From a virus, in UHGV virus genome UHGV-2186863: DNA of 14,098 bases. One strand, given 5' to 3'. The notes beneath the pieces were generated by a model. The model did no database searches and was not told the origin of the DNA. It saw only the letters and a list, made by a program, of their open reading frames with translations. Shown here in pieces: positions 5,621 through 8,487 of the stretch. The first letter of the stretch is position 1; every line of letters starts with the position of its first letter. The translations under genes and the position numbers were made by a program.

Positions 5621-5645
5621 ATAAAAAAGCCCGCATGACGCGGGC
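5621..5645 (-). terminator. Rho-independent terminator-like hairpin plus U tract
   Basis: Minus-strand RNA GCCCGC-GUCAU-GCGGGC followed by UUUUUUAU (plus strand 5629-5645 stem-loop, 5621-5628 A tract). Confidence 0.6.
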
Positions 5646-5658
5646 CGGAAGGTTTATA

Positions 5659-6051
5659 TCAGTATCCCACCACGGTATAACGCAGCAGAACATTCAGGGT
5701 ACCGGTCGCAGCAGCTGTCTTAATGGTGACCGTAACCAGCTCTCCATCACTCTGTGTGGTGTACGGCTCCACTGGCACATATTTAGCAAAGCTGGCAGTT
5801 ACTGCACCACTGTCACCAATGAGCTCATGCTTGCCAGATTTAACGCTGACGGTCGCCGTACCACCAAGACCACCTTTTGAAATCAGTTGGATCCCATTAA
5901 TGCGAACGCCAGTCGGCAGTGAGAGAAGATTAATAACGGTTTCCTGTTCGGCAGCATTCACTGTAAACACACCTTCTGCCACCGACTCATTACCATGCGT
6001 ACCTGAATAAACCCGCTCACTCAGTGACGGAGCAAGGATAGTCTTTGCCAT
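5659..6051 (-). CDS. hypothetical small structural protein (beta-rich; possibly head decoration or head-associated)
   Basis: 130-aa ORF directly downstream of the capsid gene; AGGAG 9 nt upstream of the ATG at 6051; bracketed by two terminator-like hairpins. Confidence 0.65.
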   Translation of the reverse strand: MAKTILAPSLSERVYSGTHGNESVAEGVFTVNAAEQETVINLLSLPTGVRINGIQLISKGGLGGTATVSVKSGKHELIGDSGAVTASFAKYVPVEPYTTQSDGELVTVTIKTAAATGTLNVLLRYTVVGY

Positions 6052-6065
6052 AATTAATGACTCCT

Positions 6066-6089
6066 GAAAAAGCCGGGCGATAACCCGGC
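6066..6089 (-). terminator. Rho-independent terminator-like hairpin plus U tract after the capsid gene
   Basis: Minus-strand RNA GCCGGG-UUAUCG-CCCGGC followed by UUUUU, then the AGGAG of the next gene. Confidence 0.6.
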
Positions 6090-6105
6090 ATGGGGAAAGG
6101 AAAAA

Positions 6106-7320
6106 TCACAGCTTCACTGCGGTATCAACGGCAATAACACCGTGATCCTGCATCTTGCCGCTCTTCTCGGGGAAACGGATTTTTTTCAGACCGTTGATCC
6201 AGCTGATTGCTATCTCAGTACGGTTATCCATATCCGTTTTCTTCTCAACCATGTTGAAGTGGCCGCCGCCCTTCTGGCCGTACGCATTCGCCAGCGCCTG
6301 AGCCCCCAGCAGCATGGCACGGTCGATGTTGGTCTTGGCCTGCTTCTCCTCTGTGGTTGCTGCCATATCGTTTTTCGATACAAGGACCTTTGAGTCCTTA
6401 TAGAAACGGATCGGCATCCCCGCATACTTACGGACCAGAATATTGCGCCACATCGCACATTCGCCTTTGAACAGCGGATGGTTAAACCCTTTTGAGCGGT
6501 TTACGGCACGCGTCATCATCTGGTTCCAGTCCTTGCCGGACGTGGAGGTGTACCAGTCATTCCACTGACGCGGCGTGACGTAGAGGACGTAATACGGATC
6601 TTCGCCATACAGCTCATCACCGGACAGGCGTACCGGTTGTAACGGATGAGCCATCTCGTCAATAAACAACGAGAGATTATCGACCAGCGCAAGAGTGAAC
6701 AGGTCAGACTGGTCAATACTCTCAAAACTCGTCGCATCCCCACCGAAAAAATGACGATCATGCGTCGGCGGCAGTACGTCGTTGATCATGATTTTTTTGA
6801 ATTCAGGGTGATCTGCCGTTGGCAGAATGGTGTCATCAGCAACAAAATCACCGCGGGCACCGGCAAGATGCACTATCGCACACTGGTCCTGCAGGTCGTT
6901 AAAGTACGTACCCAGCAGCGTTCTGGCAGAGGATGCCAGGTTGAACTTCGTACGCTGTTGGCTCATACGTCCGCCCGCATCCACCAGGTGACGGCCCTGA
7001 TTAATTTTCAGGGAAAAATCAGCATGGCTGAGGTCTTCACCACGGCCTTCAACGCGCTCATCCCCCATCGTCGGACGTTTAGAGAGTTTGTGCATGATGC
7101 TGAACGTCACTTCATCACCGGCCTGTTTGTTGAGGTCCGTGATTCGCACAACCGGTGCACCGGCACTGGTCTGCTTCGTGCTTTTCTTGTCAGGCGAAAC
7201 TGCTTTTGGTGCATCCTGCTGTTCAGTGAGTATATTCACCATTGAGCGGTTGCGGTTGGCAGCCGTGAAAAGCGCCACCTGATACAGCTTATTCGCCTGG
7301 GCTGTTGTTACTGTGGTCAT
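6106..7320 (-). CDS. major capsid (coat) protein
   Basis: 404-aa ORF at the coat position of a terS-terL-portal-scaffold-coat module; GAAGGAG upstream; terminator immediately downstream. Identity rests on synteny, size and recalled similarity to short-tailed lambdoid phage coat proteins, not on a search. Confidence 0.75.
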   Translation of the reverse strand: MTTVTTAQANKLYQVALFTAANRNRSMVNILTEQQDAPKAVSPDKKSTKQTSAGAPVVRITDLNKQAGDEVTFSIMHKLSKRPTMGDERVEGRGEDLSHADFSLKINQGRHLVDAGGRMSQQRTKFNLASSARTLLGTYFNDLQDQCAIVHLAGARGDFVADDTILPTADHPEFKKIMINDVLPPTHDRHFFGGDATSFESIDQSDLFTLALVDNLSLFIDEMAHPLQPVRLSGDELYGEDPYYVLYVTPRQWNDWYTSTSGKDWNQMMTRAVNRSKGFNHPLFKGECAMWRNILVRKYAGMPIRFYKDSKVLVSKNDMAATTEEKQAKTNIDRAMLLGAQALANAYGQKGGGHFNMVEKKTDMDNRTEIAISWINGLKKIRFPEKSGKMQDHGVIAVDTAVKL

Positions 7321-7342
7321 TACGTCAGTACTCCTTCAGTGG

Positions 7343-8350
7343 TTACCCGAGTTTTTCCAGAATCGCGTCAATTTCAGCGTCCGTCATGCCTCGCATGGCG
7401 GCTTCAATTTCGGTATGGGAAGCACCAAGTAACCGTTCAAAATTATCACCGGTTCCGACGGAAGCCGTGTTGCCAAGCTCTGACGGGGAAGCAGGCACAG
7501 CCATCTCCCGTTCAGCGGCTTTCACTTTTTCTTCCGCCGTTTTCCGGATATCCGTGTTGTCTGCCTTGTCATCAGAAGGCGGCTCACTGGCTTCACCGAA
7601 AGCGAGCTGCGTACGGCGGGCCACTTCGGCGAAACGTTCAGTGAGCGGTTTGTCTTTCCATGCGGGGTCATTCTGGAGCTTCCCGTCGATGGATACGGCA
7701 ACCGAGAAGCGATCCGGATCGGAGTTCTGCCACGTTTTCAGCACCGGCACGGCATTCATCGCATCAAGAACCGGTGATAAATCCTCACCACCATGACCTT
7801 CTGCCTGCTGTGCTGATTGCTGAACACGGGACTGGAGATAGTTATTTTTACGGATGAGCGAAGCCACCGCGTCACCAATTTCCGGATACATATCCCTGAT
7901 ACGGGCAATCTTCTCATCAGAGATTTTTTCGTTTTCCGGTAACGGTGCGGGTTTCATACCGGCCTGGTGGATCTGAGACGTCAGCAGTTCAACCAGGCGT
8001 TTTTCTTCGGCTATCTGTCCCCGAAGAAGTGCGGCTTCCTGTTCGGCCCGCTGCTTACCGGAACGTTCAGCCTCAAGGACTTCATAGGGAATGACGTGTT
8101 TACCATCGCGGGTGAGCACACCCTTCGCCTCCGGCTCCTTCACGTCCTGCGTCTGCTCAGCACTGGCATCCGGCGTCGGTGCCGCAGTGTTATCGCCCGT
8201 CTGTGTCTGTGCTGCCTCATCCGCATGATTTTCTGTGGCGGCCTCTGTCACGCAGTCCTGTTCGTGACCGTCAATATCCACATCTCCAAGCCCTTCCAGC
8301 ATTTTTTCCAGTTGTTCCGGGGTTTCTTCACCCGTAAATTCAAAATCCAT
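7343..8350 (-). CDS. scaffolding-like protein (acidic, helical)
   Basis: 335-aa strongly acidic ORF between portal and coat genes, the P22 gene 8 position; GGAG 8 nt upstream of the ATG at 8350. Confidence 0.55.
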   Translation of the reverse strand: MDFEFTGEETPEQLEKMLEGLGDVDIDGHEQDCVTEAATENHADEAAQTQTGDNTAAPTPDASAEQTQDVKEPEAKGVLTRDGKHVIPYEVLEAERSGKQRAEQEAALLRGQIAEEKRLVELLTSQIHQAGMKPAPLPENEKISDEKIARIRDMYPEIGDAVASLIRKNNYLQSRVQQSAQQAEGHGGEDLSPVLDAMNAVPVLKTWQNSDPDRFSVAVSIDGKLQNDPAWKDKPLTERFAEVARRTQLAFGEASEPPSDDKADNTDIRKTAEEKVKAAEREMAVPASPSELGNTASVGTGDNFERLLGASHTEIEAAMRGMTDAEIDAILEKLG

Positions 8351-8460
8351 AAATAACTCCGCATGGTCTGTTTATCGGACAGATCCGAATGGTTGAGTAA
8401 ATAAGGCTTATCGCTGCCCCCGCGAATAAGCGCACCGCTCCCGGAACGCTTATCTCCGGA

Positions 8461-8487
8461 AACAAAAAACCCCGTACGATGACGGGG
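8461..8487 (-). terminator. Rho-independent terminator-like hairpin plus U tract after the portal gene
   Basis: Minus-strand RNA CCCCGU-CAUCGU-ACGGGG followed by UUUUUUGUUU, starting about 20 nt after the portal stop. Confidence 0.65.

Follow-up and report, generated by a model that had tools for sequence, protein, structure and literature searches.

Terminator-like hairpins and a structured leader RNA at conserved cistron boundaries in the head gene cluster of a 933W-like phage

Genomic Organization of the Head Gene Cluster

A stretch of 14,098 nucleotides from UHGV virus genome UHGV-2186863 (hereafter the window) carries three hairpins of the intrinsic-terminator type, designated hp1, hp2 and hp3, which follow the portal gene, the major coat protein gene and a gene for a 130-aa virion protein, respectively. 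All three lie on the minus strand, which is the coding strand, at the sites given in the preliminary description of this locus, in which three canonical structures of this kind had been noted, and they belong to modules conserved among relatives. That description missed a structured leader after hp1, as well as a fourth hairpin that relatives carry after the head-assembly gene and that has been lost in the clade of the window. In sequence comparison, Escherichia phage PhiR12_3 is 100% identical to the 4-kb core of the window, and many Shiga toxin (Stx)-converting phages, together with Shigella phage POCJ13, share 90–95% identity with it; the window phage is assigned by these matches to the 933W-like short-tailed lambdoid phages of the Sepvirinae.

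The whole gene set is encoded on the minus strand in the order small terminase (terS), large terminase, portal, head-assembly gene, coat, 130-aa gene, 153-aa gene, and overlapping neck and tail genes. The portal gene (8508–10652, 714 aa) matches Pfam P22_portal (E 4e-129) and the major coat protein gene (6106–7320, 404 aa) matches Pfam Phage_capsid_3 (E 4e-87), while the head-assembly gene, which occupies the scaffold position (7343–8350, 335 aa), has no Pfam match and belongs to phrog_479 of unknown function. The 130-aa gene (5659–6051) is assigned to phrog_486, a virion structural protein, and has no Pfam family; the 153-aa gene (5147–5608), the first one after hp3, was placed by the gene chain and PHROG annotation. 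Only three gaps of at least 50 nt occur in the gene chain from terS to the tail fibre, each holding one hairpin, and the genes downstream of the 153-aa gene overlap, so that no further gaps exist. No tRNA or tmRNA was found in a scan of the window, and the Q gene and the late promoter do not lie within it; the late genes of 933W-like Sepvirinae have been reported to depend on Q (PMC7547250, PMC8443680).

Anatomy of the Three Hairpins

The module after the portal gene spans 8460–8491 (minus strand), with the hp1 stem-loop at 8466–8491 and a U-tract reaching down to 8460. It reads GGAACCCCGU-CAUCGU-ACGGGGUUUU, with a stem of 10 bp (5 G-C), a loop of 6 nt and the tail UUUUUUGUUU, and starts 16 nt past the portal stop codon (8508–8510). 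The module after the coat gene (6067–6089, minus strand) consists of the hp2 stem-loop GCCGGGU-UAUC-GCCCGGC at 6072–6089, whose stem has 7 bp (6 G-C) and whose loop is UAUC, followed by UUUUU at 6067–6071, which continues directly into the GGAG that serves the 130-aa gene as ribosome-binding site; it likewise starts 16 nt past a stop codon, that of the coat gene. The third module (5621–5646, minus strand) holds the hp3 stem-loop at 5628–5646 and a U-tract down to 5621, starts 12 nt past the stop codon of the 130-aa gene, and reads GGCCCGCG-UCA-UGCGGGCU with a stem of 8 bp (6 G-C), a loop of 3 nt and the tail UUUUUUAU.

In all three hairpins, a GC-rich stem within the range of 5–14 bp and a loop within 3–8 nt are combined with a U-tract 3' of the stem, past a stop codon and on the sense strand only, so that at the level of sequence hp1–hp3 have the full set of properties of genuine Rho-independent terminators. 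In a consensus scan they rank second to fourth among 34 terminator-like sites of the window, compared with 13.6 ± 3.5 sites in shuffled sequences. The stem-loop free energies of hp1, hp2 and hp3 are −13.7, −12.7 and −13.2 kcal/mol, while the folding z-scores of the whole gaps are unremarkable at only −1.95, −2.84 and −0.57, respectively; the case is therefore built on placement and conservation, and not on energy alone. The top-ranked site of the scan (7381–7401, plus strand; 9 bp, 6 G-C) is an antisense site with a poor T-tract (CTTCAATTTC) in the 3' end of the 335-aa gene and probably arose by chance.

The hairpins had been described as lying immediately before the next gene's ribosome-binding site, which holds for hp2 and hp3, where 19–20 nt separate the stem end from the next ATG and the ribosome-binding site adjoins the module, but not for hp1, where the 115 nt to the next start codon (8350) are filled by a conserved structured leader. 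It had also been suggested that sub-operons might have some autonomy. A sigma-70 promoter scan gave no site downstream of any hairpin, and the −10/−35 candidates in the leader are, as read from the alignments, unconserved among relatives, which leaves this suggestion without support in this phage. In an Rfam search of the whole window at gathering thresholds, hp1–hp3 and the leader were unmatched, and at E ≤ 10 the region 5500–8600 gave merely weak chance matches to models of terminator-bearing small RNAs.

Moreover, hp3 is also present in phage 933W itself (locus L083, AF125520), where the annotated start of gene L0118 at 12284 corresponds to an in-frame ATG in the hp3 loop (UCAUG; window equivalent 5636–5638). 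Sakai and POCJ13 are annotated with a start 27 nt downstream of this ATG that does have a ribosome-binding site, and the L0118 start in 933W is probably an annotation artefact.

Conservation of the Hairpins among Relatives

A search with the coat protein yielded 80 viral loci with a coat identity of 73–100% and a conserved gene order, to which one fixed rule was applied: a perfect stem of at least 5 bp with at least 4 G-C pairs, a loop of 3–8 nt, and at least 5 T in 8. By this rule, the module after the portal gene is present in 73 of 73 loci (27/27 unique sequences), where it is frequently doubled in tandem, and the modules after the coat and the 130-aa genes in 77/80 and 78/80 loci, respectively; the post-coat hairpin is missing, for instance, in locus L056. 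The module density in the four head-cluster gaps (81 loci) amounts to 9.1 per kb, versus 0.04 per kb in the sense-strand coding sequence of five genes. In most relatives (L044–L081), the 335-aa and coat genes are separated by a fourth module, of the type ACCCGC...GCGGGUUUUU. The clade of the window has lost it (7321–7342), and the gap there has shrunk to 28 nt from 59–70 nt. Across all clades, three of the four gaps keep the start codon 19–25 nt from the stem end.

The stems themselves differ between clades, with 9–16 distinct 7-bp stem sequences per site. When RNAalifold was run unguided, the hairpin emerged as the sole consensus helix at two sites: compensatory changes affect 5 of 7 pairs after the coat gene and 3 of 7 pairs after the 130-aa gene. 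In addition, when the U-tract was dropped from the search, nearly all of the hairpins found still had at least 5 U in 8, including 32/32 of those after the coat gene, against a background T fraction of about 0.3.

Beyond this set, the three positions are likewise occupied in a marine clade (Pseudoalteromonas, Shewanella, Psychrobium; coat about 52% identical), from which the post-coat hairpin is missing in Psychrobium locus L359, and in F116-like Pseudomonas phages, whose coat is about 33% identical. The terminator hairpin after the portal gene is also present in Vibrio relatives. In Bcep22-like phages the positions are partly occupied, and the hairpins of Burkholderia phage BcepIL02 have no U-tracts; high-GC relatives keep the hairpins with U-tracts that are weak or absent. 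The hairpins at these cistron boundaries are accordingly real, selected and old throughout the lineage of this capsid module. Since the U-tracts are conserved and the tandem terminators after the portal gene are located far from any ribosome-binding site, selection appears to act on termination itself and not just on a hairpin.

Two kinds of insertion were observed in these gaps. In loci L060, L063, L066 and L068, an opposite-strand gene of about 115 codons, encoding a small hydrophobic membrane protein, lies between the portal stop codon and the terminators, in a gap of 560–620 nt, which marks the portal-to-leader gap as a moron insertion site. The other is an element of 125–135 nt resembling a miniature inverted-repeat transposable element (MITE), with terminal inverted repeats TGACAAAGTT / AACTTTGTCA, a GC-rich structured core and no Rfam match. 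It was found in L072 (4660–4875), in L077 and L080 in the gap after the 130-aa gene, and in L077 and L070/L071 in the gap before the coat gene. The MITE-like element sits directly after terminator stems, replacing the U-tract, and in L072 the hairpin sequence is duplicated on either side of it; from its sequence it looks like a small mobile element targeting terminators.

A Structured Leader Downstream of hp1

The interval between hp1 and the 335-aa gene (8351–8465, minus strand) is conserved and structured. Its first helix, P1 (8416–8463, minus strand), is a two-tier hairpin with an outer tier GUUUCCG/CGGGGGC and an inner tier AUAAGCG...CGCUUAU, and takes its 5' strand from the distal part of the hp1 U-tract. 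In the alignment, 96.8% of the cells of P1 pair, compared with 31–54% when the partners are slid, and pair 40/79 is seen as CG, AU, GU and GC; the sense-strand RNA is what folds in P1, because two of the pairs are near-invariant U-G pairs. P1 is followed by the invariant motif UUCGCnnnGGCAGCGAUAAGCC (8405–8426, minus strand), the 5' part of which is the 3' strand of P1, while the rest is single-stranded or forms a 3-bp hairpin. The consensus of this motif is GGCAGCGAUAMGCC, which can also be written UUCGCnnnGGCAGCGAUA(A/C)GCC and is shortened here to the GGCAGCGAUA motif. No complementary long-range partner for it was found elsewhere in the window, and its sequence is absent from the literature searched.

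After an AU-rich linker of variable length, a pseudoknot or two overlapping helices follow at 8367–8388 (minus strand), with compensated pairs in both helices. Helix A, UCGG(A)/(U)CCGA, pairs 8384–8388 with 8375–8379 and has one compensated pair (47/54, GC in 18 and UA in 10), while helix B, UCUGU/ACAGA, pairs 8379–8383 with 8367–8371 and has three (49/65 as UA, AU, GC and GU; 51/63 as UA and CG; 52/62 as AU and GC). Over the two helices, 97.3% of cells pair, versus 25–44% with slid partners, and the observed covariation score was reached by 0 of 500 shuffles. The arrangement is that of an H-type pseudoknot, in which the loop of the first of two helices pairs downstream, with covariation in each helix. 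If both form together, the window would have loops of 1, 0 and 3 nt and Vibrio phage D96a, as read manually, loops of 2, 1 and 3 nt, which is feasible but tight, and helices A and B may represent a compact H-type pseudoknot or, alternatively, a two-state switch of mutually exclusive hairpins. The structure ends 6 nt ahead of the GGAG (8357–8360) of the head-assembly gene, and 5–8 nt from the Shine-Dalgarno sequence across relatives.

The leader is carried by all 73 of the 73 coat-selected loci that include the gap between the portal and 335-aa genes. It also occurs in prophages of Serratia, Citrobacter, Yersinia, Brenneria, Pectobacterium, Shewanella, Pseudoalteromonas and Psychrobium, and every relative examined from Enterobacterales and Alteromonadales prophages has it. 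A genome-wide pattern scan returned mostly chance matches, with about a dozen usable true prophage instances. In Vibrio phage D96a, manual reading revealed a terminator, a small hairpin, a pseudoknot topology and a Shine-Dalgarno sequence in equal order and with unrelated sequence; a Vibrio-phage coat query added one locus, and the 101 Vibrio records are nearly clonal, so that little covariation was gained. A covariance model of the leader gave one strong match in the window (8355–8426, minus strand, 68.5 bits), and the Rfam 15 covariance models gave none at gathering threshold on 8351–8465. A weak second match of the leader model at 3517–3592 (plus strand, 17.2 bits, rough E 6e-4) is antisense in the tail-fibre gene and probably due to chance.

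Several other readings of the leader were considered and rejected. As a promoter, its best −35/−10 candidates, picked by hand, are unconserved in relatives, and the distance between the conserved blocks is variable by about 18 nt; if GGCAGCGAUAAGCC is read as a sigma-54-like site, the spacing is wrong and TTGC is missing. A DNA operator at the inverted repeat is at odds with the covariation of the repeat centre and with the near-invariant U-G pairs, which would be A-C mismatches on the other strand, and the GGA motifs that could serve as CsrA sites are unconserved in the marine clade. It is conceivable, with odds that we place slightly below even, that the leader is an undescribed cis-regulatory RNA, acting as a translation operator for a head protein (ORF61, coat or portal) or a host factor, or as a processing or 5'-stabilising element, and that it would form a stoichiometry device together with hp1–hp3.

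In Burkholderia phage BcepIL02, a gene for a CsrA-like RNA-binding regulator (locus L416, 3598–3792) lies directly upstream of the major head gene. This gene hints at a recurrence of post-transcriptional control over head genes in the capsid-module lineage.

Products of the Flanking Genes

Deletion genetics of phage Sp5 has shown that ORF60 is the portal and essential for packaging, that ORF62 is the major capsid protein, and that head formation requires ORF61, the homologue of the 335-aa protein, which was undetected in virions (PMC5155283). In the same study, ORF63, the homologue of the 130-aa protein, fell outside the essential-gene set, and deletion of ORF64, the homologue of the 153-aa protein, lowered infectivity (PMC5155283). 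Acidic, helical and in large part disordered, the 335-aa protein has a single-sequence AF2 model of low confidence (pLDDT 52), too poor for a fold search. The protein is scaffold-like in character, though the likely scaffold according to Sp5 genetics is ORF65 and not ORF61 (PMC5155283). For the 130-aa protein, the single-sequence AF2 model is an all-beta sandwich (pLDDT 71.6), which is matched best in the PDB by the trimeric cement proteins of Helicobacter pylori phages KHP40 and KHP30 (E 9e-6, TM 0.52) and by a capsid chain of cyanophage Pam1. Given these model matches, the position of the gene and the dispensability in Sp5, the 130-aa protein is a probable capsid cement or decoration protein, with moderate confidence at a TM of about 0.5.

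Comparison with Known Systems

Phage P22 offers the closest likeness to hp2, with a GC hairpin and U-rich tail just past the coat stop codon that run into the GGAG of the next small gene (GenBank BK000583, stem_loop 6102..6119). Both phages have a lambdoid late operon with the order portal, scaffold and coat, and the P22 record describes a putative post-coat stem-loop in a location similar to those of the HK97 and lambda stem-loops; hp2 is of the same type, in that it stands directly past the coat gene and adjoins the next ribosome-binding site. However, P22 has a single hairpin, whereas the window has three and its relatives four or five, and in P22 the portal–scaffold junction is 13 nt and the scaffold and coat genes overlap, neither junction having a hairpin. 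The F116-like Hollowayvirus LKA5 (KC900378) has a homologous head module with a coat that is 33% identical. Its record predicts two overlapping terminators after the portal gene and one after the capsid gene, and a third hairpin was found here after the next structural gene. In contrast to the window, where none is detectable, promoters are also predicted past the LKA5 terminators, and its U-tracts are weak and its GC content high.

In phage T7, the leaky terminator T-phi lies directly past capsid gene 10 and, together with 3' hairpins processed by RNase III, raises the capsid message relative to that of the tail genes; T-phi acts on T7 RNA polymerase, whereas host polymerase with Q modification is presumed here. 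In the cip-cel operon of Clostridium cellulolyticum, stem-loops 3' of the most expressed cistrons have been reported to encode the assembly stoichiometry (PMC4423207). A U-tract is dispensable for the cip-cel stem-loops, which are accompanied by processing sites that have been mapped, while hp1–hp3 are known from sequence.

The kind of hairpin discussed here is thus already known, and what is new is its deep positional conservation with compensatory change, together with the leader RNA. Leader pseudoknots serve as translational operators in T4 gene 32 and Escherichia coli rpsO, which the leader resembles in its putative compact H-type pseudoknot, placed 5–8 nt ahead of the Shine-Dalgarno sequence from which a scaffold-position gene is translated. 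The scaffolding gene of P22 is reportedly autoregulated post-transcriptionally, as Wyckoff and Casjens are said to have found in 1985 (cited in PMC2115188); to our knowledge, the RNA target of this autoregulation was never defined. The leader has no sequence or Rfam relationship to T4 gene 32, rpsO or P22, and P22 lacks such a leader.

Possible Role of the Hairpins in Late Transcription

As the late genes of this family depend on Q antitermination, and by analogy those of the window would as well, most lytic transcription should read through hp1–hp3, while the conserved U-tracts and tandem copies imply that termination of at least some polymerases matters. Our preferred reading, which we hold tentatively, is that hp1–hp3 are terminators subject to read-through and that their hairpins serve in addition as 3' decay barriers, thereby bounding stable segments of head-gene mRNA. 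A role in the abundance of mRNA segments is suggested by the placement after the coat and probable cement genes, by the precedent of P22, HK97 and lambda, and by known stabilising stem-loops; stabilisation of upstream mRNA by terminators is also described in PMC11696848.

In the lytic phase, most polymerases, made terminator-resistant by Q at the late promoter, would read through the three sites and a minority would terminate there, the GC-rich hairpin being retained on the RNA in either case. Termination, or an endonucleolytic cut in the AU-rich spacers, could then leave the hairpin as an exonuclease-resistant 3' end. The terminase–portal segment of the mRNA might accordingly have its 3' limit at hp1, and the head-assembly–coat segment would begin with the structured leader and end at hp2, with a longer version that includes the cement-protein gene and ends at hp3. 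In this manner, the message for proteins needed in hundreds of copies might outlast and outnumber that for the downstream neck and tail proteins. In the coordinates of NC_002695.2, the 3' ends predicted on this reading would fall at about 1,280,415 (hp1), 1,282,814 (hp2) and 1,283,254 (hp3).

An effect of this kind had been proposed in the preliminary description, according to which the hairpins may raise the stoichiometry of the coat and small proteins. The proposal suits hp2 and hp3, which lie 3' of the two cistrons whose products should be the most abundant, the coat and the probable cement protein, with P22 as a precedent, but it does not suit hp1, which follows the low-copy portal gene. 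Several points weigh against read-through terminators with barrier function. A hairpin follows the portal gene, whose product has 12 copies, and in relatives also the head-assembly gene, which fits poorly to a ladder of abundance and is the weak point of any reading based on stoichiometry. Moreover, attenuation at hp1 would reduce the coat message, an exonuclease barrier has no need of conserved U-tracts, and Q-modified polymerase is expected to ignore the sites almost wholly, so that partial termination may be negligible. Single hairpins have also been lost without obvious harm (the pre-coat one in the clade of the window, the post-coat one in L056 and Psychrobium L359), and a literature search returned no transcript 3'-end data, from Term-seq or induced transcriptomes, for these sites.

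The main rival, possible though on the doubtful side in our judgement, holds that the hairpins are fail-safe insulators, which would stop polymerases unmodified by Q, such as those from tR' leak-through, moron promoters or spurious prophage starts. Lysogens would in that case keep the head genes silent, late expression would depend strictly on Q, and the sites would be read through in lytic growth with no quantitative role. The conserved U-tracts and the frequent tandem terminators after the portal gene, which point to selection on termination efficiency, agree with this, as do the moron insertions into the portal/head-assembly gap of L060, L063, L066 and L068 and the filling of whatever non-coding space exists by terminators. 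Late regions of Stx phages have furthermore been described as having promoters active in lysogens (PMC7547250; Tree 2014 supplement). However, the positions are kept around core head genes and not around morons, and they are kept in F116-like, Bcep22-like and Vibrio phages, where Q-type antitermination is not established. One strong terminator at the start of the cluster would suffice for insulation, and the constant adjoining of the next ribosome-binding site would be left unexplained.

This adjoining would be explained if the modules served translation initiation, with the hairpin shielding the ribosome-binding site from upstream structure and terminating ribosomes, and the U-tract acting as an S1-binding or standby site that boosts the next cistron. 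The stem-to-start distance of 19–25 nt, held in three of four gaps in all clades, would be expected in this case, the U-tract continues into the Shine-Dalgarno sequence as it does in P22, and overlap is found between genes that have no hairpin, whose translation is presumably coupled. We nevertheless consider such a function improbable, as the full U-tracts of hp1 and of the first members of tandem pairs are separated by more than 100 nt from every ribosome-binding site, high-GC relatives retain the hairpins despite weak or absent U-tracts, and insulation of a ribosome-binding site has no need of a GC stem of 7–10 bp. Least credible, and hardly to be expected, is that the hairpins are 3' ends of Hfq-bound small RNAs derived from 3' untranslated regions or neutral remnants of module junctions: late regions of enterohaemorrhagic E. 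coli prophages do encode Hfq-bound small RNAs with intrinsic terminators (bioRxiv 10.1101/2025.11.27.690950; PMC7547250), but the Tree 2014 supplement, on uninduced cells, has no EcOnc small RNA in the corresponding Sp5 interval, and neutrality is contradicted by positional conservation and compensatory changes down to a coat identity of about 33%.

Returning to hairpins under selection, a feature annotated elsewhere as a putative stem-loop is found here to be selected at fixed cistron boundaries of a capsid module in phages of hosts from Escherichia to Pseudomonas, and the punctuation of the late operon is therefore part of the design of the module and not an accident. Probable annotation errors can be flagged in this way, such as the 933W L0118 start in a hairpin loop. 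As the late transcript of 933W-type phages also includes Shiga toxin, whatever shapes the fate of late mRNA is relevant to both toxin and phage output, and the leader RNA would, provided that it is functional, give new access to how the ratio of scaffold, coat and portal is set.

Repeats in the Small Terminase Gene

Outside the head gene cluster, the 5' part of terS (12880–13065, minus strand) contains about nine copies of TGCGCA followed by 5–7 A, several of which are phased at 12 nt. Viewed on the plus strand, these repeats appear in the scan as a cluster of terminator-like hairpins, and they encode a repetitive SAQKNAQK peptide linker. They may represent bent DNA or a pac recognition region, the latter being a candidate because the pac site of P22 lies inside its small-terminase gene.

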